A stretch of DNA of 56,252 nt, filler included, from Dugesia japonica (taxonomy: Eukaryota), in assembly GCA_001938525.1 (NCBI GenBank). It is 5 parts of 5 records of this genome, joined end to end, with 100 filler letters (N's around TTAATTAATTAA, not from the genome) between each part and the next. Parts side by side here need not be neighbours in the genome. Positions count along the whole stretch, not along the records: positions 32,391 to 42,913 come from MQRL01627275.1; 4 more parts are not named here. One strand, given 5' to 3'. Of the stretch, positions 87 to 53,700 are shown piece by piece. The notes beneath the pieces were generated by a model. The model saw nothing but the letters and a program-made list of their open reading frames with translations, made no database searches and was not told the origin of the DNA. The translations under genes were made by a program, and so were the position numbers. The first letter of the stretch is position 1. Every line of letters begins with the position of its first letter.

Positions 87-495
87 AATATCAATTTTAA
101 GTTTTTCACCTGTATCTAGACATGTATCTGTAATACGTCCTTCTACAGTTGATCGAGATGCTTGAATATTTGATATTTTTCATGTAATTTTGAATTCTCA
201 TGATCAATAATTTTTATCTATTTTTAAAAATCGAATATATTTTAAAAAGAATAAAATATAAAATTNNNNNNNNNNNNNNNNNNNNNNNNNNNNNNNNNNN
301 NNNNNNNNNNNNNNNAATATCAATTTTAAGTTTTTCACCTGTATCTAGACATGTATCTGTAATACGTCTTTCTACAGTTGATCGAGATGTTTGAATATTT
401 GATATTTTTTATGTAATTTTGAATTCTCATGATCAATAATTTTTATCTATTTTTAAAAATCAAATATATTTTAAAAAGAATAAAATATAAAATTA
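87..495. repeat. ~179-bp near-identical duplication on both sides of an N gap (87-265 vs 317-495)
   Basis: Direct comparison shows about 4 substitutions. The copies are separated only by Ns, so this is probably an unmerged overlap or allele. Confidence 0.8.
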
Positions 496-524
496 AATAT
501 TTAGTACTTTCCTTTTTTAAATAT

Positions 525-641
525 GAATTTTTAAATTTTTTGTTTAAACAATTAATGATTTCATAGTTTTTTATTTTAATAAATTTATGGAGTTGAATTC
601 TGATGTTAATGATTCGATGAGTTTTCCTAACTCACCTAACA
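525..641 (+). mobile_element. Solo-LTR fragment (3' part) related to the gypsy LTR at 36600-36921
   Basis: TTGAATTCTGATGTTAATGATTCGATGAGTTTTCCTAACTCACCTAACA aligns with the reverse complement of ~36600-36650. It has AATAAA at 578-583 and ends in ...AACA. Confidence 0.7.
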
Positions 642-5385: not shown

Positions 5386-5582
5386 AAAAAATTGTACGTG
5401 TTTGTTTTATTTTAAAAGACTTATGTTATAAAAGATTTCCTTGAGAAATATCATCTGAGGGCCTCAAAAATTGTTTTATGTTGCACTTTTGAAAGCTCTG
5501 ATCAAATCTAATATAAATTAACACTATATAAAGATTGAATAAAATAATCAATTTGAAGTTGATAAATAATAAATATAAAATT

Positions 5583-7217
5583 ATGTCAACAAAAAAAGCG
5601 TGGAAAAGAGTTTGTGCAAAATTATCACCCTTACAAAATGTAACAATTTCTCCGATAAAGCATGTTTGTCATCATGGTGTAACAGATCCTTTGTTAAATG
5701 AAAGATACACGGAAGTTATGATCTGGACATTATTAACTACTGAAGAATTTTTTTATCAAGACACTTGTTCCTTGGTTTATCACAACTATAGGCATAAAAA
5801 ACAATTAATAAGAATTCTGAATAATTCTAGAACTGTAATAGACTGGGGTGCAAAATTAGAAAATTATCAAATGATTGGCAAAGGTAGTTTTGGTGAAGTG
5901 TATGTTGCAGAAGACATTGAAACTGGGAAAAAGTACGCTTTAAAACGAATAATTCAGACAGAGTCAAAAGCAGAAGAGGACGCTGAACAATTTATAAGAG
6001 AAATTCTTTTAGAGAAAAGTACCCTTTTTGAATTAAATAAATGTCCTATATTTATCAGATTACTTGGCGCTTTTGTCGGACCAAACTCGTCATCATATTG
6101 GTTTGTGATGGAGTATTGTATTTGTGATTTAAGTAAAATAACTACACCTTATCTTTATTCAACTGATAATGATAAACTCTGGGAAATTTATATGAATGAT
6201 AATGCAATAGAAACTGCCAATGAATATTTCAGTGCAATTTATGAGGTTGAATATACTAAAGTAATTTTTATTTATCTTTTTGAAATGTTGTCAGCTTTGT
6301 ATTATCTTGCTCATCGTCATATAGTACATGCTGACTTGAAAACGCAAAATATATTAATTTCTATTAATGGACATATTAAAATTGGCGATTTTGGGGTAGC
6401 GTTTCGGCATAATTGGTTTTACAGGAATTCTTTAATTTATATAGCGAGTTCAGAAGAAGAAAGAGAGAATATGGAATCAATGGATTGCTCTTATGAATAT
6501 GTAGGAAATACTATGCATCATGATCCGGAAGTTAGTATTAATCGATTGAAAATAAAAGGTAAAAAATATGAAAAACAATTGAATAAACGATATTCTGAAA
6601 ATGAATACTATAAACGATTGTCAAATTTTAGTCAAGAATTTATGACAGATTTATATGCGGTCGGATTGATTATTGTCGAACTATTAACTGGAGGACTTAA
6701 ATTAAAAGTCAATCCACCGTTCCAAACAGTACAAATGAATCCATTTTGGTCAGTCGATTTAGCTTATGATGAAGATATTCATAAAGAAATTATTACTGAC
6801 AGATTATTGTCGGGATGCCAAGATGACAATTTTGAATCAGTAATGGAATTTATAGGTTCAATTTTCACTCCTCGTAAAATCAGAGCTAAAAACTTTACAT
6901 CATCGATGAAAGTTTTAATTTATAATAAATACAAAACGAACAAATATATAGATATAGGCAAGGTGGAAAATATCGCTTATTATTCAAAAAATAATATAAA
7001 AATGTTGAATGTTCTAAGTCGAAGATTACCGACAGATTTCATTTCGAATTTGAAATTAAAATTTGCAAACAATTTTCTTAATAAAAACTCTATTTCAACA
7101 GGTCAATTAGAATCAGAATCAGGATTTACAGTAAAAATCAATCCAGCAAAAACTATTAATCGGCAAATTTATTCTCTTCCTGGATTTTGTTTTACAGATA
7201 CTAAACATTTGGATTAA
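5583..7217 (+). CDS. Intronless Ser/Thr protein kinase, 544 aa from the first ATG; divergent, AGC-like, non-RD
   Basis: Open frame 5535-7217 with GKGSFG, YALK, alpha-C Glu (REILLE), HADLKTQN, IKIGDFG, GNTMHHDPE and TDLYAVG. The ATG at 5583 is preferred over the ORF-track TTG. Confidence 0.9.
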   Translation: MSTKKAWKRVCAKLSPLQNVTISPIKHVCHHGVTDPLLNERYTEVMIWTLLTTEEFFYQDTCSLVYHNYRHKKQLIRILNNSRTVIDWGAKLENYQMIGKGSFGEVYVAEDIETGKKYALKRIIQTESKAEEDAEQFIREILLEKSTLFELNKCPIFIRLLGAFVGPNSSSYWFVMEYCICDLSKITTPYLYSTDNDKLWEIYMNDNAIETANEYFSAIYEVEYTKVIFIYLFEMLSALYYLAHRHIVHADLKTQNILISINGHIKIGDFGVAFRHNWFYRNSLIYIASSEEERENMESMDCSYEYVGNTMHHDPEVSINRLKIKGKKYEKQLNKRYSENEYYKRLSNFSQEFMTDLYAVGLIIVELLTGGLKLKVNPPFQTVQMNPFWSVDLAYDEDIHKEIITDRLLSGCQDDNFESVMEFIGSIFTPRKIRAKNFTSSMKVLIYNKYKTNKYIDIGKVENIAYYSKNNIKMLNVLSRRLPTDFISNLKLKFANNFLNKNSISTGQLESESGFTVKINPAKTINRQIYSLPGFCFTDTKHLD

Positions 7218-7669: not shown

Positions 7670-8033
7670 CAGGGCTTTGGAGCTGAGATCGAAACACAAT
7701 AATTTGGATTGCTCCACTGCTCCAGTTTATTAAAAAATACATTATTTAAAAAACTTACTAAAGTGATATACTAAACTAGTACATACAATGTATGTCATGC
7801 ATACATTGCGTACACGCATTTCCTTGCTTGAGTTTATGTTGATCTGCTCTATAGGATTTTACTGAGTTCATCTCAAATTTTGAAAGCTGAAACTATGTAA
7901 CAACTTGAAATAAAGTTTATTTAGTTAATTTACACTAAAAAAACATTTTTTCTTTCAACTTTTGAAGATTTGTAATTTTTATAAATTTTCCTTGGAGCAT
8001 GGAGCGGAAAAATTGGACTGCTCCAAAGCCCTG
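7670..8033. mobile_element. hAT MITE, 364 bp
   Basis: Perfect 14-bp TIR CAGGGCTTTGGAGC and perfect 8-bp TSD ATACATAT (7662-7669 and 8034-8041). Confidence 0.9.
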
Positions 8034-8265
8034 ATACATATTCAATTTTACAATATATTAAATGATAAGAACATGAATATTTAAATGAAAAGCTTTTTAT
8101 TTAGTAAAATTCATAAGAGAATGTACAGTAAAGAAATAGAAAATAGTGTTCTTGTCGTAGTATTTTATAATGCTCTCTATATCAATGTGTATTCGTGCGG
8201 AGGTCTATTTGCAATGTATTTTTTGTTTAGATGATTTTCGGGGTGTAAGGATTAAAAATTGAAAA

Positions 8266-10276
8266 TCGCAACGCTTCAATAGACCTCATTCGAGAAGCAC
8301 TACACCCACGTATTTACCGGCATGGTGGCGATATTGAACAGTTGATCAATGGTTGCATCAAATACTTCAAATGTATAGGTGTAAAGAAAAAGGATAAAAA
8401 CCTCATGGTGGTTGGCTTAATTGATCGAGAATTAAGAGAAGCATACGAATGCCAAGATGAATTATTATATTTCGAGGACTGGCCGAGAAAAGCGTTCCAC
8501 AAAAGGACTACTCTAATACAAGACTTAGAGGAAGCTTTAAAATACAAGAGAANGGATGAACACGTTTATGTGTTCAAGAAAAAGATTTTAACACTGGTCG
8601 ATAAACTCTTTGCACACGAATTAGACAAAGATGAGATGACAAAAGAATAAATATTCAATAATTGCCGCGATAAAGGAATGCATATAAAGATTAAAGGAGG
8701 AAAACTTGCTAACTCGGAAGAGATATTTGAAACAATAAAAGCAAATGATGAACTAAAGGAGTACCTGGAAGAAACAGATAATATAAATATGGTGGAGAAT
8801 TACAGCAATGCAGTAAAAAAGAGGCATGACAAAAGAACGCTTCTCAAGAGTTAACGGAACTCAAAGTGAAAAGAAATTACATGCTGTCATGTCAGAAGAT
8901 AGCTCATATCAGCAAAAGTTGTCCAGAAAAGAAAAGAATGTGTTACGCATGCGGATCAGAGAATNNNNNNNNNNNNNNNNNNNNNNNNNNNNNNNNNNNN
9001 NNNNNNNNNNNNNNNNNNNNNNNNNNNNNNNNNNNNNNNNNNNNNNNNNNNNNNNNNNNNNNNNNNNNNNNNNNNNNNNNNNNNNNGAATAACGAACAAA
9101 GAAACGAAGCAGCACAATACAACCGAAGAGAGGAAACAAACAGAAGATATGACGATAATACAGATTCCCAAAACCGAGTGGGAAGACATCAGTTAATAAC
9201 AGATTCAGAAAAAGTGACGGCAGTAAATATGTAAACGCAATGTTAGAAGAGTATGAAGAGTGCATAAAGAGAGAAGATAATGTTTATTATTATGACGAGG
9301 AGACAAACAGCTATGGAGAAGAGACCCCAAACAGACAAGCTCCATTTTAAGTCGAGATTATTGGAGCAATGAACTGAAAAACAATCCAAATCGCGATATA
9401 CATATGTATATTAAAAGTAGTTTGATTAATAGTATAAAAGATGAAACTAAATAGGAAAGAGTCGACAGAAAAGTTTATGCGTTTTTAAAGAAAGATTTCG
9501 AAGATATGTATAATGAGATATCAATATATAATGAAAGAAACGATAAATGGTGATAACAAAATAATGGTATTAGAAGAGAATGAACAAGTAAAAATAAATT
9601 ATGATAGAATGCAATGTAGGCCCAGTGTNNNNNTTAGAATTCAAGGAAGATATATGGACTGCCTTTTGGATACAGGTGCAAAGATAAACGTGATGAGCCT
9701 CAATATTTTTGAAGTCTGGCAAATGTGGAGCTGATAGGAACTGATGACGTGTAAAAATGTGCAAATAATAGCAGAATAAACATTGTGGGTAAGACATATG
9801 TAGAAGTGAAGATCGGAAACAATAAGAAAACAGTAAAATTCACCGTAGTAGAAGAAATGAGTCCGAATCTTGTCGGAGGAATAAACATGCAACTCCAATT
9901 TGGACACCGTTTAACGAAAGAAACAAAGGATTATGAGGATGAACAGTGGTTCTGCAACATAGATGCAAGGTTTGGNNNNNNNNNNNNNNNNNNNNNNNNN
10001 NNNNNNNNNNNTTTGAAAATTTTGATGACAAAACGAGACGAAAAACTGGAAAAGGTAATAGTAAAACATCGAGTAGTATTCATGGCGGATAACTGGGATG
10101 TCAGATGCACAACGTTGGCGGAACACAAGATAGTGACAAAGGGTAACCCAATAAATACGAAACATTGTAGACAACCTATGAATCTAGAAGAAAAAATAGA
10201 TACAGCCATAAAAAATGTAGTGGACGCTAATATTATACGAAAATGTAATTCGCAGTGGAAGACACCACTGATATGC
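8266..10276 (+). mobile_element. Ty3/gypsy retrotransposon copy 1: decayed gag, protease and start of RT, cut by the contig end
   Basis: Gag zinc-knuckle remnants (HISKSC, CYACGS), protease CLLDTGAKINVM (~9660-9695) and RT start IIRKCNSQWKTPLIC, with many stops. Confidence 0.9.
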
Positions 10277-23539: not shown

Positions 23540-25560
23540 AAACTAAGCATACTCTTATATTTCACAAAAATAATCTGTTGTTCACAGTTCGTTAAATAAA
23601 GAACATTCACTGTTTACTTCCTTTTTTTGTTGAATTGATTTGTCTGTGTCCTTCACTCCTTTTATATCTGTCTTTACTTTTTGACACCATTTTAATGTTC
23701 AAATCAGTTCTCTCGTTCTTTCTCTAAAACCATTATCTGAGTGAATATCTTTGAACCTTCTCAATTTGTTTGTCACTCTTGTTTGTGGATAACCATGTTT
23801 TTGCTACCCCTTTAGTACCTCACTCGTGTTTTCCTTCTCTGCTTTAATCCCTAGAACAGCTTCTCAAATCTGAAGTAATCTCGTTCTTGGTTTCCCCATC
23901 TTTGCTTCTCCCTGTTCCATTTGATACTGTGAACATGTATCACACATTAGTCTGCCCAATGTGCCCAAGTTTTTGTTTAACCTATCCTTTCTTTATTTTA
24001 GATTGATATTAAGATTACTAAGGACATCAATCCAAGTTTAAAATTTGCTTGTTATTGGCTTCTTCGTTGTCAGCATAAAGATGATTGCCTTATAATCCGT
24101 TCTCAAATTAAAATGTCTCTCGTACAAGTAGTTATTAAAATTCAGGAAAAGGTAGTACACTACGAACAACTTTTTCCTAGTTGTACAGTACCCATTTCCG
24201 TGAAAATACATTGCTTCCCAATGTCAGTGTCACGTCAAATTTATTTCTGTTAGTTCATCTGAATAAAATAGTTTTGTATTATCTTGGTCACTACGTAATT
24301 GTTTTAACTTCCTCACCTTAATCGCGTAATCGTTTATGAACTTCCTGTAATGATTGAATATTCATAATAAACTACGCACTCTCTTCACGCACTTTGATTT
24401 GCCGAATGATTTGATAGCTTTCACATTTATTGAATCTGTTTGGATTCATTTTTTGTTGGTGAAATGTCCTAAAAGTTTTCAAAAATTACACAGATGTCGA
24501 TTAAGCGTTTTGTAAATTCAATTGTTCAGAACAATTTTTTCCTTTCTGGGTTCTAACTATTTTCCCTTTCAACGATTTTCATTTATCATAATTCTCGTTC
24601 CCTTCTATCCCATATCTTTCATAATTATTCCGTCTATTATTTATTCCTTGACATTCTTTGCTGATATAATGTCTCATTCCGCATCGATAACATTGAACTG
24701 ATCGATTCTCCTGACATCTGCTAGTATGACTCTATGTTTTCAAACGTCCAACACATAAGCTTTAATTGAAGTGAACATTTCTATTTCATGTTACCTTCTT
24801 TATTACAGTTCCAGCACACTTTATTTATTTCTCAACTCTAATATTATCATGCAAATCTCTTCTATAATTCTGTATTTTCTCTTCATCTTAGTTCGTTACA
24901 TCGATTTTCTGGTAGTTTATTTTCTTGAATTCGATTGTTTCCTCAGTTTCCTTTAACCACCTTGGCGAATCTCATAATATTCTCAGATTCCTAACTGATT
25001 CTCACTTTGTCTATACGTTTCAAGGTCTCTTCAATATCTTCAACTTTTTGAATTTTCCTCAATATTAAATCTTCTACTCATTTATTTCTGACACCCTCTA
25101 CTTATAGTTAAGCTGTTAGTTTCTCTTTGGAGAAATCTTTGTTTGTGAAACGTTTTACTATAAATTCTTCCACTTTCTTAATATATGTGTTAAGGTCTTT
25201 TTTAATCTTTTTATATTCCACCATTATTTTCATATCTCCAATAACGTCTTAATCTTTGCTAAACGCATTCCACAATCGGTCTTGAAAGCAACCTCCTTTC
25301 GAGAATGCTTCCACATATTTTCCTACTAGCTCTTTATTGATCAGCCTTGTTACTAAACTTTCCTGTTTCCATTTGTTTGTAATCCCTTTCACTTTGAAGT
25401 ACAGCTCACACTTCCAAAACAATCTTATGATGTTATCTTGTCTACCTTATATTTTGAGCATCAAACGGTAAATTACAGAATCTATGTTCACTGCTGCCAC
25501 CATGTTAAGTAGTGTGATCACAGACCCGTCTTTAAATACCAATTAGTTTGCATTTTTATA
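23540..25560 (-). mobile_element. Ty3/gypsy copy 3: heavily deleted, with LTR end, PBS, gag, and RT/RNase H remnants
   Basis: Gag N-terminus MVAAVNID...WKCELYFKVKG, RNase H NYLYERHFNLRTDYKAIIFMLTTKKPI, and the motif CDTCSQYQME. Confidence 0.8.
25489..25502 (-). promoter_or_regulatory. Primer-binding site, tRNA-Leu-like, of gypsy copy 3
   Basis: The minus strand reads ...TTAACA|TGGTGGCAGCAGTG, 13/14 identical to TGGTGGCAGCGGTG, which I recall as the complement of the metazoan tRNA-Leu(AAG/UAG) 3' end. Confidence 0.7.
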
Positions 25561-32461: not shown

Positions 32462-32588
32462 GTGTTACTTTGATTTCATAACTAAATGTTTTATTTCAAA
32501 TAGAAATTCCTTACAATGTTAATAATTAATATTTCCGAAAAAAACCAATCACACAAAAATTTCAACTTGCTTTTGAAAACCACTAACA

Positions 32589-32599
32589 TCCCCCTTTTT
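32589..32599 (-). promoter_or_regulatory. Polypurine tract of gypsy copy 5
   Basis: Minus-strand AAAAAGGGGGA immediately precedes the TGT of the 3' LTR. Confidence 0.8.
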
Positions 32600-35500
32600 A
32601 AGAAATTTTTTGATCTTCCCTACGTTTGTTTTGAGACTTTTTCCGTTTGTATCCTCTAGGATGTAACGTATGTCATGAATCTTCCTCTTGATCTTATAGG
32701 GTCCTTCATAACGATCTTGACTCTTGTTTCAGCTTTCACTAAGACCTCATTATCGATCTTGAATTGTCTTTTGGTTAATATTCCTTCCCCTTGTTCTTTG
32801 TGCACTGTTTAAGTATTGGTTTCATACCATTTTTCTCTGCTTATTCTCTTCCCAAATACGATTTCAGCAGGTTTTTTCCGATAGTTTTCTGTTTTGTAGC
32901 ATTTAAGGCAAATTCTATCTCTGGTAATACATCTGCCAAATCTGAAGTTTTCCTATCTTTAAGCGTTGCACTAATCATATCCCGTATAGTTCTAAACTGC
33001 CTCTCGATTTGCCCATTTGCGTTATGATGATATGGACTCGAAAACCTTAGGGTGATTCCATGTTCAGCTGCGAAATCTTTCATTGATTTTGACTCAAATG
33101 CTCTTCCACAATTAACTCGCATTTCTCTCGGAAACCCTAACTTTAATAATCTCTAATATTGCTTTCCATGTGGTATCTTCATCTTGTCTTGTAATTGCTA
33201 TCAAGACATACTTACTGCATTGGTCTATTATACCGAGAACCTATTTTTTCCGACCTCTTGTCACCAGCAGTGGTCCACACACATCTATAAATAACAGTTC
33301 AAACATTTTGGCTGGCTGCGTCTTTTTCGTTTCTTCCTTCTTTTTTGTTGTCAACACTTTAGCTTTTTGGTATGTTAATCAACTTCGGACAACCTCTTGT
33401 ACTTTGTTCCACAAATGTTTTACATTATATTTCTGCTTCATATAATCTGCTACCTTTTCTGCTCCAGCATGACACAAAATATGGTGTATCCTCATTATAA
33501 CTTCTTCTACTTTATCATCAGGTATCCATGTTCATTTATCATTCTCACCAAAATTACCTTGTTTTCCTTGAATATCTACTGTATTTAACATCCTTGTTTT
33601 TAATTTTCCACTTTTGGGATCCTCATGTGATATTAGACATTGTGTACATGTACCGCATGCATTCCTTGACAACATATCCGCATTTGTATGAAGCGATCCT
33701 TTTCTATATTCCAATTTTTTATCTAAACTGCTCAAATAATTAATCCAGGTTTGAAACTGTNNNNNNNNNNNNNNNNNNNNNNNNNNNNNNNNNNNNNNNN
33801 NNNNNNNNNNTCTGAGGATAAATCTCTTCCCATATAAATAATGTTTGAGATGAATACAAAAGTAGTAAATTGCGAGCGATTCTTACCGCGTAGTACAATA
33901 TCCTTTCTCATGACTTGTCATTGCGTGTGGCCCATATGCAATTACTCTTTCTTGCCCGTTGTTGTCCCTTTGAGATAGTACTGTCCCAATCGTATCAAAA
34001 CTCGCATCCATGTCCAAATTAAATTCTCTATTTATATCTGGAAAACATAATATTGAAGACATCACTAGTGCTTATTTCATTCCATTAAAAACTTCTTCTA
34101 ATTCATTCGCCCATTCAATTTTCTTGTTATTTGGCCCACTACACAGTTGTTCCAGCAATCTAGCTTTTTTCGAATAATCTTTAATAAACTTGCGATAGTA
34201 ATTACAAATTCCTAAAAAGCTTCTCATTTTCTTAACGCAGTTTGGTTTACCAAAGTTCTTAATTGCTTCTATTTTAGTTAGATCTGTTTTGACACNTTCT
34301 TTNCTNATAANNTNTNCCAAANNTTTGATCTCNTTTCGCATGAATTGACATTTCTCCAGATTAACTCTAAGACCAGCCTTCTTAATTTCTGTTAATACTC
34401 TATTGATTATTTCATAGTGTTGCTTCTTTGTTTTGATAAATATGAGAATATCATCTAGATAAACCATTGCTTCTATTAATTTTCCGATTAGTTTATTCAT
34501 AATTTCCTGGAACGTACCTGGTGCTGCTGGAATTCCAAAAGGCATTCTATTGAAACAAAATTGCCCTTTTTTGGTCGAAAAAGCCGTCTTTTCTTGAGAA
34601 TCTTCACTGAGTTCCACTTGTTAATATGCATTTCCCAAGTCTATTGAGCTAAACTACTGCGTACCTTCCAAAGCATCTAGCATTTCGTCCACATTTGGCA
34701 TAGGAAAAGCTTGTCTTTCTGTTATTGCATTGAGCTGTCTAAAGTCTAAGCATAATCGTATATCCTTTTTTTCCTTTTTNNNNNNNNNNNNNNNNNNNGT
34801 ATTCCATTGCAAATTACACTTCCGGATGATACCATTATCATATAGATTCTTGATGGCCTCTTCAATCTTTTCCTCTAGATTCATTTGTTGGCGATACGGT
34901 TTTATGTTGACTGAACCTCCTTTAGTGAGTATTCAATGCTTCGTTAAGTGTGTACATCCAATGTCCCATTTATCCGCCATAAATGCATCCTCAATATTCT
35001 GAATAATCGCAGTCAATCTATGATCTTTGTTAATTTCTAGAATCTCCATTGCATGTCTCAATTGTTGACCCGTCTTTATTTGCCTTCCAAATTCTTCTCG
35101 ATGATTATTGATGTCTACCCTGCACTTGTTTTGCAGATGATACCCAAAAGTATTCTGAATTTCCACTCCACCAATTAGATCTGGTATTAATTTCTCTACT
35201 ATTATAAATCTTACTTCCTTGCACACTTCTGAAACTACAACTTTGACACGTATCTTTCCAATCGTCTCCAATGAGCTGTTATTTGCGCAATGTAATCGTT
35301 CCTCGCTTTTTTATATTATTGTTTCTCCGAGTCTATTAAATCCTTTCGTGCTCATCACATTTATTCTTGCTCCTGTATCCCACAAACAATCAAATTGTTC
35401 CCCCTTGATCATCACTGAAATGCTGAGTCTCCCTTGCATTTTATCATACGAAATTTCTGCATTCTATTTTTCTTCAATTATTCCTATCACTCCTGCTTTG

Positions 35501-36589
35501 TTAACTTCTGCATCATTGAAACTTTCTCTTTTTAGGAATCTTTTTCTCTCACTTTACTTGTCTTATCCCATTTCTCGGCCTCTTGGAGATATTCAGACGG
35601 TATCTTGTTTAATGGATGTCTCCGATCAACTCTCTACTGATGGATTCTCTACTTGGATCTTCATTTTCTATTATGCTCTCAGAAAATCTCTCTTCATTCT
35701 CATCATCAAATTCTTCTCGAGTGGCATGAATTGGTTTTGTCCGACTCCAATCTTTTGTTTGTTGTCCGCTTTTAAAATTGTATCTTCTCTCTTCTAGTCT
35801 AGGTTTATTAATGTTCNAATAACATTCTTCTGCTCTGTGACTTGGTCTTTTCAATATACCGCATACAATTTCTGTGCACATCCTTCTGATATGACTAATC
35901 TTACCACACCCAAAAAAGTTTGGTGGTTACTTGCCTGGACAATTTCTACTTAAATGCCCTTTTTTGCGATAAGTCCAACATTTCACATGAAAATTTTTGG
36001 ACACTCTCTTTTTTATGCCCATAACTCTGGCATGTCCAACACTGTGGTTCTGTTCTTTTTGTAACTCTCTCAATATTTTGTTTCTTTTCTCCGAAACAGT
36101 TCTCCACGTGTTACACCAGCGTAACTCTTTACTACGTTAATTGGTTCTCTTCTTTCTATTTTTTCGACCAAAGATAACGTTTCTTTTATGTCTTCTACTT
36201 TCTCAAATTTTTGCATGATAATTTCTTCTTCTGCTTTTTTACTATTTCCACAAATTATTAGCATTTTTGAAAAGGGTTTTTCTTTCGTCAACTCTTCATT
36301 TGTTAAAAATTTATCGACCAAATCTTCCACTTTTTTAAAATAGACTTCAATGTCTTCATCACCACGTTGATAGCTTACAAAATTCTATAAAAGCTAATCG
36401 CAATATGCTTCCATATGCTTCCATTACATATGCTTCCATTAAATCTTCATGAAGCATAAATGTTACCCAACGTTCCTGATCTTTCTTAAAATGATGTTCT
36501 TTGCCTCAAAGTATATTTCACACCGTTTCATAAACTTCTCTAGACCATCGTCTCTGCAAAATAATTTTGGTAACAATCTTTCTGTGATT

Positions 36590-36599
36590 GCTGCCACCA
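36590..36599 (-). promoter_or_regulatory. Primer-binding site, tRNA-Leu-like, of gypsy copy 5
   Basis: TGGTGGCAGC directly follows the inferred LTR end and is the same as in copy 3. Confidence 0.65.
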
Positions 36600-36921
36600 A
36601 GTTAGTTGGGTTTTGAAAACTCACCGATTCATTAACATCAGAATTCAAATTCATTACAACGATTTATTAATATAAAAACGATAACCAACAGCATTTGTTA
36701 ATCAAACAAATTAAAATTCCGTAATTTAATTGGTGATATTTTTTCTAAAATTAAAAATTGAACGTTTTTATTTATTAAAAGTAATTTAATTCATTTAAAA
36801 ACATTTTATTTATTTACTTAATTTTCATTAAAAATTTAAATCTCTCTTTTAAACAAAAGATTTTAAAAATAAGATTAACAATCACATAAAAATTTCAACT
36901 TGCTTTTCAAAACCACTCACA
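36600..36921 (-). repeat. 5' LTR of gypsy copy 5, about 322 bp
   Basis: It starts with TGT, shares its first ~43 bp with the 3' LTR remnant and its last ~115 bp with the solo fragment at 525-641, contains AATAAA (36663-36668), and is followed by the PBS. Confidence 0.7.
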
Positions 36922-37489
36922 CTGATAATATTCAAAAAAATTTTATCAATAATAAATTTGAAAAGCTATTTAAATCAACCAATTTATATAATCTTAATTA
37001 TATTATATAATTGCACCAATATGCAACTTGTTTATATTTTGTTGCGAGTAGGAAAATATTAGATTAATAAATGAAAATTTTTTAAGAAGCTTATCAAATT
37101 AGAGTAAAAAAAATTTGCTTCTTTATTTTTTATTAAGTATTTCACTGTCATCAACTATTTACCAGACACGCAAAACGTAATATGTAGGATCGAATAATAA
37201 ATTCGTGAATATTAATCGGACCACATATACTAATTTAAAGACACTGAATACAAATATTAGTTTTATGTATCACATATTTCGTTTATGTTAATATAAGATT
37301 CAAAATAAAAAATTGAAATCGAAATAAAAAGTTTTATTTTTTTTATTTAAAAAAATATAAAAAATCATTAAAGATACACAAATTATTTATTTTGAAAATA
37401 AATTAATCATTTTACAAAATAAATTAATCATTTTTCAAAATAAATTAATGATTTTATCAACGCAGATAAGAGTGTAAATAAATTAGTTA

Positions 37490-38160: not shown

Positions 38161-38617
38161 TACTTAATTAAATGGCGTTATTTTATTTTTATGAAAAAGT
38201 TGTCAATGTTAGTTGAGTTTTTATTTAAAAAATTTTCAATTCATGTATATCATAAGATGACTACCTTATTTATGTTTCTTGCTTTCTGTTAAAACTACTA
38301 CGATTTGCCGACTGTTTCTGTGGTTACAGTACTGCGGTCTACTAAAAGTTTAATTTTAAAAATTTTGAAATAAAAAATTTAAAAATCTTATTTTAAAATT
38401 TATTACTTTTATTCATTTTTTAAAATTTTTTAATCTTTAACTTTCATTCCAAAATTTTTATCTCATTGATTTCAAAATTTTTAAATATTTTGAAATCAAA
38501 CTATTTTCAATATTTTAAAATTTAGATTATTCTAAAATAATTTAATTATAAATTCTACAAAAAACTCGAAGTCGAAATCTAGAAAATTCACCTATGCTAT
38601 TAATCTTTTCTTACAGA

Positions 38618-38854
38618 AGTAGATAGATAGTAGCGCACATAGCAACCCCCCCCCTCAAGGTCAAATTTTTTGAAGGTCAAAGTGGCTCATTATTTTCGAT
38701 TCTGATAGGCTGATTCATTTTGAATCACCTTGAAAATTCAACCTTGAAATGGATCAGCCAATCAGAATCGAGAAAAAAATGAGCCACTTTGACCTTCAAA
38801 AAATTTGACCTTGAGGGGTAGGGGGGTGGCTATGTGCGCTACTATCTATCTACT
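38618..38854. mobile_element. Foldback/palindromic non-autonomous DNA element, 237 bp, superfamily unassigned
   Basis: Roughly 100-bp inverted arms start AGTAGATAGATAGTAGCGCACATAGC; TACAGA is repeated directly on both flanks (38612-38617 and 38855-38860). Confidence 0.85.
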
Positions 38855-38963
38855 TACAGAGACTAAATCGAGAAACAATGAATTAATAAGTAAAAAGAAT
38901 ACAAATAAAATGAAAATTTAACATCTAGAAATTGTTGATTATGTTCATAAATTTATTCTGTAG

Positions 38964-41500: not shown

Positions 41501-42913
41501 CATGCAATAAACGACATTCCATTTTTAGGATCCTTCTTTTCAATTAATAAATTCATAAAATTTAATAAAACCAATTTATTAATAATTTATTATAAATAAT
41601 TAATAAAAATTATTATTAATACCAATTCCTAACTACAAATTTTTGGAAAATTCAAATTTATAATGCAAGGAACGGTTTATTTTCTCAAGATAATATAATA
41701 AATGTCATCATTTCGGCCTGTTTAATTATTTCTATTTAAAAATTTAAATGAATAAAAAATAAGTTGCGACTAAGATGTATTGGATTTGGATCTTTTTAAG
41801 TGTAAAAAATTTATTTAGAACGAACTATATTTTTTAAAATAAATAACAGATCTATTTATTTATTTAATAATTCATTTATAATTGTTAGATGAGTTTTGAG
41901 TACTCATCGGATCATCAACATCAAAATGCAAATCCATACTAAAATTTATTTCAAATAAAAGCTATAAGTATACATTTGCTTTTTTCAAACNAACTTAAAA
42001 ATTCATATTTAAAAAACGGAAAATGATAAATTATTTGATTTTAAAATTTCATTANTATCCAATTTTATTCTATTTAAAATATCTTTAAATTTTACAATTT
42101 ATTTTATAAATTATTTTTCTTATAGAAATTTAAATACAAATTTGATTTTAATAAATTCAGTTTTAAAATACAAAAAATTTAAGTCTGTTTTCAAAAAAAC
42201 TATCTTATAGTAATGTTAAAGAAAAAGAAAAATCTATAAAAATATAATATATATTGCATTTAAATCAACAGAATAATTAGCAAACAATTTATTCAATTAT
42301 TTATCCAATTTTTTTTATAATTTAAAGCAGTGTTTCTCAAGTTTTGTTTACATCATTGAGTACTTGTAGAGGAATTTAAATTAAATTGCAATTTAATAAA
42401 TTATGAAATCCAGAGTAAAATAAAAAAAATAATGAAGTAAAGTATTACTCATTCTGTTTAAAAGAGTAAAGAAATGAACAACTAGTTTAAAATATTAAAT
42501 GAAAGACTAGATTTAAATATGGAAGCTGTACCAATCTACGGATTTTTAAATAGTGCAGAAATCTTTTTGCGGGCGCACAATTCGAGAAATTAAAAATAAT
42601 TTATTCGTTATTTCACGAAGAGTTAATCAAAGTGGAATTGTTTAATTATTACTTTGCATTGAAGGAATATACTTTCAATAATAACTCATTTTACTTATTA
42701 ATTTAGATCAGAATGGATGATATTTAAAGTAACTTAACTTTTGTCCAATAGATAAATATTTTTCTTTTTCAAACTCGGAAAATAATTGAACAATTCTTTG
42801 CGTATAGAAGTGAAATATTTGACCACTTTGTATTTTGTCGGTATTGCCAGATCTTTATGCATAATAAGGAAATTACGTTTTTTCCGCTTTTATAAAAACA
42901 ATAGTTTATTTCC

Positions 42914-49940: not shown

Positions 49941-50795
49941 ATCTTTGTAATCGACTTACTTATGACAGTTTAAAGTTTTATATATTATTAGACATTTGAA
50001 ATCATGGGCATAGTTATAATTAAAATTAATACAGACAAATAATAAGTTATACTTGAAATAATACTTGAGGAATTATTGAAATGTAGAAGATTGTCTCAAG
50101 ATATCAATTTGGTTACGAATAAATTATTACGCATACTTCATTATGAATTTTATATTTAGAGAATATCATGTAGTAATCAATTCAAACAGCTAAATTATAT
50201 GAAACTATAATAGTTTTATATGAATAATTTTATAGATATTGTTCAAAGATTTATAAAAATTATATAAATTTTATAATAATCAAATGGAGAATAAGAAGAG
50301 GAAGAATATTAGATATTATAATTTCTACTAGTTAATATTGTTAAAATCATTTATATGTTAAATTCTATAATAGGTATTATAGTGAGGTATTATTAGGATG
50401 ATCAAATAGAAATTAACACTTCATAAATAAATAAATATTTATTTTTAAGTTCGAAACTCATTGTGTCTGGAAAATAATTTTTTTTTGTACCAGATGTCAA
50501 CGAAATAATTCTTAAATGGAAACAGTTGACTAATGTTAAAGGTTTAACATAGAATTAGTTCTGTTGATCATTGTCATTTTTAAAAATGTTTGAAAATTAT
50601 TGAAATTATTGAAAATTATTTTAAAAAATGTTTGAAAAGAGAGTTAAAATTTTTGTGTGATGGGTGATCATTTCAAATCAAATCTTTTACTACTAAAACA
50701 CAAGTTTCATAATTTAAATAATATCAAAATACAAGCATTTCAATATTAATATTTGTATAACTCAATTTCTATTATATGAGATTATTAATTAATAA

Positions 50796-53700
50796 TTATT
50801 TCTTCATATCACCCTTCTTAAGAAACTTCCTAAGTTTTTCCACATTGTACCGCATTTTTCCTTGTATCGCATACCGCTTTTCATGAATTTTCTCAATTAT
50901 TCGATAAGGTCCTTCGAATCTGTCTTGATTTTTTTTCTTGTTTCTACCTTGATGAGTACCATATCGCCCATTTTGAATTCTCTCTAAGTAATCACGTCTG
51001 AAATGTTTTCTTGAGTTTTTTCTGAAACGTCTTACTCGTACCACTTTTCTCTGCTAATTTTCTTTCCCTTAAACGATCTCAGCCGGGCTTTTCCCAGTCG
51101 TTTTCCGTTTTGTTGCGTTCATTGTAAATTCTATTTCCGATAAAAGATCTGCCAAATCTGTTGTCTTTCTTTCCTGAAGTGTTGCATTAATAAAATCTCG
51201 AATTGTCATCAACTGTCTTTCAATTTGTCCGTTTGTATTATGATGATATGAACTCAAAAAGCAAAGTTTAATATCTAGCTTCAGTGCAAACTTTCTCATA
51301 ACTCTGGATTCAAAAGCTTTTCCACAATCTAATCTTATCTCTCTCGGACATCCAAATCTCAATATACACTTTTCTCAAATAGCTTTTCGTATTGTTTCCT
51401 TGCCTTGTCTAGGCAATGGTATAAGAGCCATATATTTACTGTAATGGTCGATTATTCCAAGAATGTATTTTTTCAGTCCACTTGTTTCCCGCATTGGCGC
51501 ACATATATCTGTGAATATCACTTAAAAAAATTGGTAGCTTCTAAACTCTTTGTCTTCTCTTTAGATGGTCTTCTGACAAATTTCACAACTACAAACTATC
51601 TTCTGTATTTGGCTCCACAGATTCTTTGCAATATATGTGTTTCTCAAATATTCGTACACTTTTTTTAACTCCTGCATGAAATAGTAATTTGTGTCTTTCT
51701 TCAATTGTTTCATGTACTTTGTCATCCGGAATTTTCATTTTCTTGATTAAATCTGTTTCCTCAGAAACTTTTAAATGATCTTTTGTTTCCTTTTCAATTA
51801 TGTTCAGTATTATCGTTTTAATCTTCCCTTTCTTGGCATCTTCATGTGACATTTGACATTGTACACATACCTCACATCTTGGTCTAGATAACATATCTGC
51901 ATTAACATGTTGAATTCTTTTTCTATATTCCAAAACCATATATAAACTGCTCAGATAATTAATCTATGTCTGGAATTGTGACGTAATTGGTTTCTTTGTC
52001 GTCATAATGAAAGTTAGAGCTTTATGATATGTTCCAAGAGTAAATCTTCTACCGTACAAGTAATGTTTTAAATACATACAGAAATAATAAACAGTTAATA
52101 ACTCTTTTCATGTTATGCAGTATCCCTTTTCATGACTCGTGATTGAGTTTGATCCATAATCAACAACTCTTTCTCTTCCTTCCTTATCTCTCTGTGACAA
52201 TACTGCTCCAATTGTATCAAAACTTGCATCTGTATCTAATATAAATTCTTTGTTTATGTCTAGAAAAAACAATATTAGTGCAGTCATTAGAGATTTTTTC
52301 AGACCCTCAAAAGTATCGTTTATTTCATCTGTCCATTCTAATTTCTTGTTGCTTGGTCCGCTACACAACTGTTCTAAGATTCTTGATTTTCTTGCTTAGT
52401 TTTCTATAAATTTCCTGTATTAATTACAAATTCCAAAGAAACTTTGTAACTTCTTGACACAGTTAGGTTTGCCAAATGTTTTTATTGCTTCTATTTTAAA
52501 TGGATCAGTTCTAACACCATCTCTGCTAATTATGTGTCCAAGAAACTTGATTTCGCTTTGAAGAAACCGACATTTTTCTGAAATTATTCTTAAACCAGCC
52601 TTCATTATTTTTTTCAATGACTTTATAGTGTTGATCTTTATTGTTCGTAAATATCAGAATGTCATCAAGATAAATCATTACTCCATTGATTTCGCCGACC
52701 ACTTTTGTCATCATCTCCGGAAATGTCCCTGATGCCGCTGCAATTTCAAATGGCATTCTATTAAAACAATATTGTCTGTGTATCTTGAGATTCTTCTTCC
52801 AGCTCTACCTAATAGTATGCATTTCCTAAATCTATTGAACAGAAATATTTGGCTCCATCTAACTTGTTCAGCATTTCTTCGATATTAGGCATAGGAAAAG
52901 CTTGTCTTTTCATTACTGCATTCAATTGTCTGAAATGCAAACATATTTTTATGTCTTTCCTTTCCTTTTTCCAAACACAGATCAATGGGGTATTCAATGG
53001 AGCGCTGCATTTCCGGATAATATTATTTTCGAAACGCTTTGGAGAGCTTCTTCAATTTTAGCTTCTAGATTCATTAGTTGTCTGTACGGTTTTACATTGA
53101 TTGGTTAACCACTTGTGATTATTTTGTGTCTTGTCAGATGTATGCATCCTACATCCCATTTATCTGCCATAAAAGCATCTTCTTTACTTTCAATTATTTT
53201 CAATAACCGTTGATCCTCTTTAATCTTCAAAATATTTAAAGCTCTTGTCAATCGCTCTCCTTTTTTAATTTGTCTCCCAAATATCGCTTCAATATTAAAA
53301 ATGTAATTTTAAAATTTTTCATCCGCTTTGCTATCAACCTTATCATAAACTGATATTCAAACCTCTTCTGCATATCTATTCCTTCTATCAGATCTGATGT
53401 CACTCTTTCAGCAACTAAGTAATCTCTTTGCAAACTTCATCAATTATCACTCCTGTTCTAACTTTTATAACAATTTCAAGTGTAGTATTATTTGCACAAC
53501 GCAATCTTTCATCACTCATTTTTAAATTTACTTCTCGTAATTTATTAAAACAACTCAAACTCATAACTTTAATTCGATCCCCTGTATCTATATGACTTTC
53601 AACTTTATTTCCTTAAATTTATACCGTAACATTTGGGCTGCTTGCAATTCATGGTACGAAATATTTGTTTTCTATTCTGTTTCAATTGTTTCAATCCATT

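Follow-up and report, generated by a model that had tools for sequence, protein, structure and literature searches.

The window analysed here, a stretch of 56,252 nucleotides from Dugesia japonica, consists of five scaffolds joined by N/TTAATTAATTAA spacers and has a GC content of 26 %. Several decayed relatives of one retroelement group are present in it, among them copy 5, a decayed, high-copy Ty3/gypsy element on the minus strand (Table 1). The main pol frame of copy 5 contains 16 stops in 741 codons and its gag is frameshifted, so the element is dead. Pfam searches gave the order Asp_protease_2, RVT_1, RT_RNaseH(_2), Integrase_H2C2 in copy 5, while rve was found in copy 6. The integrase of copy 5 does not lie upstream of the reverse transcriptase (RT), the order that marks Ty1/copia elements, and the BEL/Pao Pfam families gave no match in the Pfam searches of the window elements. 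The top PDB sequence match of the copy 5 RT was Ty3 Gag-Pol (E 5.7e-33), with caulimoviral and retroviral RTs behind it. Relatives of its gag, described below, carry zf-CCHC, and their Atlas neighbours carry Retrotrans_gag. At about 4.3 kb plus the 3' LTR, copy 5 has neither the env gene nor the giant polyprotein by which Errantivirus- or Burro-type elements are recognized (for the Burro-type giant elements, see the description in part of PMC6431247). Its layout is that of the Metaviridae, with TG...CA LTRs, a primer-binding site (PBS) after the 5' LTR and a polypurine tract (PPT) before the 3' LTR, except that copy 5's own last LTR base is not an A.

Copy 1 (8252-10264, plus strand) is a more distant gag-pol relative, 24 % alike in gag. 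No recognizable TGG primer site or LTR was found upstream of it, TGGTGGC at 8323 having been rejected as a PBS since it is coding (HGG of copy 1 gag), and no usable LTR or PBS was found at the 5' end of copy 6. Just upstream of the copy 1 gag, at 7670-8033, lies a MITE-like insert with 14-bp inverted ends and a hAT-like target duplication of 8 bp (by eye). A PPT-like tract closes copy 6; some 150 bp beyond it, a 58-bp sequence resembling an LTR start is found in the opposite orientation (50631-50830). Elsewhere, the window contains an intronless stop-to-stop ORF of 561 codons on the plus strand (5532-7217) whose protein kinase domain is divergent (Pkinase, E 5e-27), a self-inverted fold-back of about 240 bp (38617-38855, 85 %), a tandem repeat array with a period of about 55 bp (1884-2421), and a 98 % identical duplicate (87-265 and 316-494) flanking an N gap, which is likely an assembly overlap.

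Table 1 Features of copy 5 and of related LTR ends in the window (positions along the whole window)
Feature	Position	Strand	Remarks
Copy 5 5' LTR	36600..36921	-	322 bp; imperfect inverted ends of ~20 bp; final base departs from the family CA end
AATAAA, likely poly(A) signal	36663..36668	-	At -69 in copy 5; at -64 and -68 in the two solo LTRs
In-frame ATG, likely gag start	36652..36654	-	55 nt inside the copy 5 LTR
Open N-terminal gag piece	36463..36654	-	63 codons; ends at a frameshift-derived stop
PBS TGGTGGCAGC, tRNA-Leu type	36590..36599	-	Abuts the LTR directly; read in frame
3' remainder of copy 5 gag	35610..36462	-	Contains CCHC zinc knuckles; disrupted by stops and frameshifts; approximate at its lower end
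Copy 5 pol	32591..35505	-	Protease - RT - RNase H - integrase; broken; N gaps
Copy 5 PPT	32589..32599	-	pol ends at the PPT
Start of copy 5 3' LTR	32462..32588	-	93 % to the 5' LTR over 43 bp, less alike after; interrupted by a TAA run and by the end of the scaffold
Solo LTR, 3' part	451..641	+	ATG at 587 and 617; true 5' end not fixed
Second solo LTR	41883..42200	-	ATG at 41937 (-55) and a second one at -25; upper limit approximate
Copy 3 LTR end, PBS and junction ATG (sister family)	25489..25560	-	Upstream codons equal relative P0008 at 7/19 positions, but contain a stop

Limits of the LTR and the primer-binding site

Four contig sets were aligned to 35900-37100 at 80 % likeness, to which each of three organism A runs contributed about 11,000 records and organism C 589. 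Past 36921 the contig depth falls off. Behind this position and before 36601 lie loose ends with low agreement (0.46-0.47), which point to variable insertion flanks at both positions. The 3' LTR starts directly after the PPT, at 32588, and matches 36921-36879 at 40 of 43 bases. Taken together, the PPT-adjacent start of the 3' LTR and the loose contig ends make the limits of the copy 5 LTR firm, with a length of 322 bp. The LTR of about 117 bp that an earlier note on this DNA had assumed is wrong for these reasons, and its description of the lineage as compacted is not supported by the LTR either, a length of 322 bp being ordinary. Nor is 525 the 5' end of the solo LTR on the plus strand, as had been supposed, since its sequence reaches at least 451. 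The second solo LTR, with its end at 41883 on the minus strand, had been overlooked; its open frame reads MDLHFDVDDPMSTQNSSN.

The last LTR base of copy 5 is unlike the entire mapped DNA depth at 36600 (4313/4313) and unlike the other three LTR ends in the window, all of which are CA. It is therefore a private change of copy 5, and the junction of LTR and PBS in the family normally reads A/TG, i.e., ATG. Besides the AATAAA given in Table 1, two further ones occur upstream within the AT-rich LTR of copy 5.

Set against the tRNA-Leu(AAG/UAG) 3' end of other animals plus CCA, the PBS of copy 5 agrees at 10/10 positions and that of copy 3 at 13/14 (by eye), with the proviso that the tRNA of the host may differ. 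Both these tRNA ends and the typing of the same PBS as Leu stem from tables in the supplement of PMC13524379. ARAGORN found no tRNA genes in the window. When an A is followed by the complement of the published 3' 12-mers of tRNA-Leu type and of tRNA-Arg, the translation is exactly MVAA and MATT, respectively.

The gag frame in window copies and protein relatives

From the ATG at 36654, the frame of copy 5 reads MNLNSDVNESVSFQNPTN-LVAAITERLLPK... up to a stop at 36463, and past the PBS 25 of 33 residues of this open piece are identical to those of intact relatives. The earlier note had described this ATG as lying 55 nt before the LTR end, just after an AATAAA, and the frame as reading MNLNSDVNESVSFQNPTN-LVAA over the junction. 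Both descriptions are borne out by the sequence, the AATAAA ending 8 nt ahead of the ATG and the L itself being private to copy 5. The same is true of the solo LTR ending at 641, in which the ATG at 587 has the same spacing and opens a frame reading MELNSDVNDSMSFPNSPN. An in-frame ATG at -55 is thus present in 3/3 LTR ends of the family of copy 5 in the window. In pairwise alignments, the last 55 nt of these three ends contain neither a stop nor an indel; the adjoining 75 nt carry several gaps. The indels listed for the mapped contigs and reads include 36673, 36686, 36696, and 36763 and none within 36600-36654, and among the best 40 of 99 variant rows none falls at 36652-36654. A second in-frame ATG at -25 is present in both solo LTRs, out-of-frame ATGs at -39 and -33 are present in all three LTR ends, and the sequence context of the -55 ATG varies among copies. 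An antisense frame over the last 55 nt was dropped, as it contains a stop in 2/3 copies (by eye). The RNA fold of 36560-36700 was no better than that of shuffled sequences (z 0.24).

Downstream of the PBS, copy 5 has no in-frame ATG ahead of the conserved capsid helices until codon 40. Four codons present immediately behind the PBS in copy 3 and in the protein relatives are missing from copy 5, and extra letters at this site were found in 79 and 112 RNA reads. Copy 3 had been put forward as keeping the same frame across its junction. The reading ...DGSVITLLN-MVAAV, with A/TG at 25503/25502, is indeed present, but an in-frame stop stands 14 codons upstream with no ATG in between. Copy 3 supports the junction ATG only and is no evidence for a start in the LTR. 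Its junction ATG has an A at -3 and a G at +4, a combination given as the optimal start context in the relevant part of PMC10974842. The proposal that each solo LTR carries a promoter plus a start codon holds insofar as the ATG is present in 2/2 solo LTRs, but the frame in both is closed by a stop within 5-16 codons of the LTR end, and the likely poly(A) signal lies beside the ATG, so that the consequence looks small; any effect on host genes of the ATGs in solo LTRs appears slight.

A HMMER search with the 63-aa piece gave five matches, two of which are true relatives; P0001, P0004, and P0005 were dropped as repetitive or unrelated. No longer protein was found by a word-index protein search with the same piece (0 matches of 6 candidates). 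Cluster look-ups and two further searches led to 15 gag clusters at 90 % identity, which are 30-67 % alike. All are gene-caller predictions available as protein only, no DNA loci for them having been found in metagenome contigs, viral contigs, or genome contigs, and their LTR position and start codons are deduced from the protein. P0012, which has an aberrant N-terminus, was replaced by P0033 from the same cluster. A Met stands at the position of the LTR/PBS junction in 14/15 clusters, opening MVAA in six, MATT in five, and MATN, MATL, and MSTI in one each, by a motif pattern that was defined after inspecting the sequences. P0036, which lies outside these 14, is called from a Met six codons after the junction. 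In the alignment of the relatives, the junction Met is nearly invariant. The residue ahead of it is N in 11/12 and H in 1/12, as expected from LTRs ending in AACA or CACA; a consensus LTR end YNYAACA is given in part of PMC3601003. From the PBS-coded residues onward, the relatives align without a frame break.

In 12/14 clusters, the called start lies 8-35 codons upstream of the junction, although gene callers favour upstream starts. By composition, a start would be encountered ahead of any stop with a probability of 0.17-0.20 for ATG and 0.33-0.40 for ATG/GTG/TTG. This gives a p of ~3e-8 to 6e-4 for 12/14 and, when sister pairs are merged (11/12), of 3e-8 to 3e-4, a step by which kinship is only partly removed. 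The two clusters without an upstream start are sisters (100/99) and are nested among clusters that have one. The tree of the relatives requires at least two primer switches (three changes among three labels). Most gags of the clade (P0006-P0014, P0033-P0037) share, at their very end, a conserved motif of the type P-x-x-x-AP-x-x-E-x-VGA; it lies at the gag stop, the meeting point of the gag and pol frames, and is possibly a recoding or cleavage signal.

A synonymous bias in the LTR codons, as envisaged in the earlier note, was not seen: three pairwise comparisons of window copies gave 0 synonymous and 24 nonsynonymous differing codon pairs, a comparison that is also blurred by post-insertion decay. 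Among the best 40 of 99 variant rows, 0/2 polymorphisms in LTR codons were synonymous, against 4/6 differences just 3' of the PBS. The LTR-coded extensions of five relatives have a mean identity of 12 %, compared with 65 % downstream. In the model of P0033, residues 1-39 are of low confidence and are followed by a predicted helical domain, the best fold matches of which, all weak, are the Copia, Arc, and Ty3 capsids (E 0.02-0.3). The simplest reading is that selection would keep the start and the open frame while the residues stay free.

Three raw RNA runs were searched, of which 10.5-13.6 million records were read (6-26 % of each run). Reads on the element numbered 13 of 10.5 M, 347 of 13.6 M, and 438 of 13.2 M and came from both strands. 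Many had variable flanks at the LTR ends, as is expected of read-through from inserted copies. Among the rows listed for the three runs, there was one weak pile of read ends (6 molecules at 36835) and neither an RNA start pile-up nor a poly(A) end. At 36538, 36543, 36550, and 36577 (in 36529-36577), variants with <3 % of the DNA depth made up about half to two thirds of the RNA reads in two runs; all are synonymous. Most of the RNA may come from a single minor subfamily, or strain differences may be responsible.

The start of gag: alternative readings

Throughout the clade, gag would almost certainly overlap the PBS. Judged from the proteins, the clade to which the gag of copy 5 belongs appears to read its primer site as protein, and the pattern would be hard to explain otherwise. 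The reading preferred here is that gag, with its frame open from the LTR ATG through the tRNA-Leu-type PBS, probably starts at the LTR ATG, without a noncoding leader after the PBS; we infer that initiation would take place at the -55 ATG instead of at the junction A/TG.

A start at the junction itself, at the ATG formed by the last A of the LTR and the TG of the PBS, is a less likely though serious alternative, in which the PBS would still be coding and the upstream LTR ATGs would be minor or passive. It would account for the junction Met being the sole invariant start (14/14), for the A at -3 and the G at +4 around it in copy 3, for the calling of two relatives from this Met, and for the lack of conservation of the peptides upstream of it, together with the variable context of the -55 ATG. 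However, any LTR that ends in CA and abuts a TGG primer site yields an ATG, so that the invariance is forced by the constraints of integrase and tRNA. A start at the junction only also leaves the open frame with a start in 12/14 clusters unexplained, and to reach it by scanning, a ribosome would first have to bypass as many as four ATGs lying upstream (-55, -39, -33, -25).

An ordinary gypsy layout, with gag starting after the PBS, is very improbable. The LTR ATG and its frame would then be due to chance in AT-rich DNA and alike through the common descent of three LTR copies. The three LTR ends in the window are indeed related to each other, an open stretch of 18 codons has a probability of 0.14-0.22 by composition, and the Met from which P0036 is called lies past the junction. 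Such a layout is largely refuted by the clade-wide continuity of the frame, from the PBS-coded residues onward and up to the upstream starts of the 12/14 clusters, and copy 5 offers it no in-frame ATG between PBS and capsid helices before codon 40. Hardly any probability at all is left for the idea that the 322-bp unit is not an LTR but, for example, a MITE beside a gypsy fragment or a scaffolding chimera. The unit does have inverted ends of about 20 bp, the match between the 5' and 3' repeats is good over 43 bp only, and the element spans several N gaps. Against this, mapped records have variable flanks at both ends of the unit, some with a purine tract upstream of 36921, the 3' repeat begins exactly after the PPT, and PBS and gag follow downstream of the unit in 79 and 112 RNA reads.

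If gag starts at the LTR ATG, transcription would start upstream of the AATAAA, the ribosome would scan a short cap-proximal leader to the ATG, and translation would then pass through the end recognized by integrase and through the PBS. Before the capsid fold, the 8-35 residues coded by the LTR would form a tail with the PBS-coded MVAA or MATT that is predicted to be disordered, and for a tail in this position selection would keep only the start and the open frame while leaving the amino acids free. Together, AAC-A at the end of the LTR and the TG-G of the PBS would supply a second in-frame ATG in good Kozak context, catching ribosomes that skip the first. This junction ATG is the called start in one sister pair of relatives; as a forced by-product of CA and TGG, its invariance is no proof of use. 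Of the earlier proposal of a Ty1-like overlap of gag, PBS, and LTR in a Ty3/gypsy element, the open frame and the overlap with the PBS stand and appear to extend to the clade, and a start in the LTR is likely, whereas the synonymous bias, the compaction, and the use of copy 3 as evidence for an LTR start are not supported.

A bolder model, which we consider doubtful, is that the clade builds its gag start from replication signals, the LTR ATG and the junction ATG (att end plus PBS, optimal Kozak) giving rise to two Gag isoforms. Each change of primer between tRNA-Arg and tRNA-Leu, in either direction, would then rewrite the N-terminus of Gag. Since ribosomes have to cross the PBS, translation and the loading of the primer would be mutually exclusive and would act as an intrinsic translate-or-package switch, open to blocking by host tRNA fragments as well.

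Relation to known elements and significance

The gag of Ty1 starts about 40 nt inside a 334-bp LTR. In Ty1 of Saccharomyces cerevisiae, the PBS is located at RNA nt 94-104, within the GAG ORF, according to part of PMC4974528; in copy 5 and its family, the PBS likewise lies inside the gag ORF, as it appears to do in the protein relatives. Ty1 (Ty1/copia, Pseudoviridae) is the closest analogue of the 5' layout of copy 5. The two differ in that Ty1 has the copia domain order and a tRNA-iMet primer, whereas copy 5 has the order RT-RNase H-integrase and its clade has PBSs of tRNA-Leu or tRNA-Arg type. A further difference from Ty1 is that the copy 5 family has an ATG composed of LTR end and PBS.

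Domain order, RT, CCHC gag, separate gag and pol frames, and TG...CA LTRs with AATAAA are shared with Ty3 and typical Metaviridae, as far as these are described in part of PMC3601003. In Ty3, the 5' PBS segment lies outside gag (in part of PMC4974528), and Diaspora has a leader of 873 bp (in part of PMC1142308); unlike in these two elements, the leader after the PBS is zero in the copy 5 family. Primer sites for tRNA-Leu, with tRNA-Arg in some cases, and switches of the PBS from family to family are described for the Mag, Mdg3/Micropia, and Saci2 clades in parts of PMC3286476 and PMC12471100. The clade of copy 5 resembles these animal clades, by description and not by an RT tree, in its Leu/Arg primer sites and their switching, short LTRs, and compact size; the descriptions in those parts of the two papers mention no gag start in the LTR. 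On the evidence of its sequence, copy 5 is a member of Ty3/gypsy (Metaviridae) whose 5' end would work like that of Ty1.

In the insect gypsy lineage, gag follows a long leader. LTR and PBS overlap by one base there (in part of PMC3286476), and in this respect, LTR end and PBS abutting or sharing a base, it resembles the copy 5 family. It differs in that the overlap concerns the primer site, no junction start codon being described in that part of the paper (PMC3286476). Phrase searches of open papers turned up no Ty3/gypsy element for which gag is described as beginning within the LTR or at its junction with the PBS; an earlier account may exist in other sources, such as Repbase or GyDB.

In conclusion, the layout of copy 5 reveals no new kind of element. 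The Ty1 solution, with the PBS inside gag and a likely start in the LTR, would also be present across a diverse animal clade of Ty3/gypsy, a class of elements for which it is unusual. A single stretch of about 70 bases would act as integrase end and primer site, carry the likely poly(A) signal, and code for protein. For annotation, this means that gag is truncated where LTR and internal parts are stored separately. The first four conserved residues of Gag would tell the priming tRNA (MVAA for Leu, MATT for Arg), which would make primer switches traceable from protein databases alone, and the manner in which translation and primer annealing share one RNA segment becomes testable.
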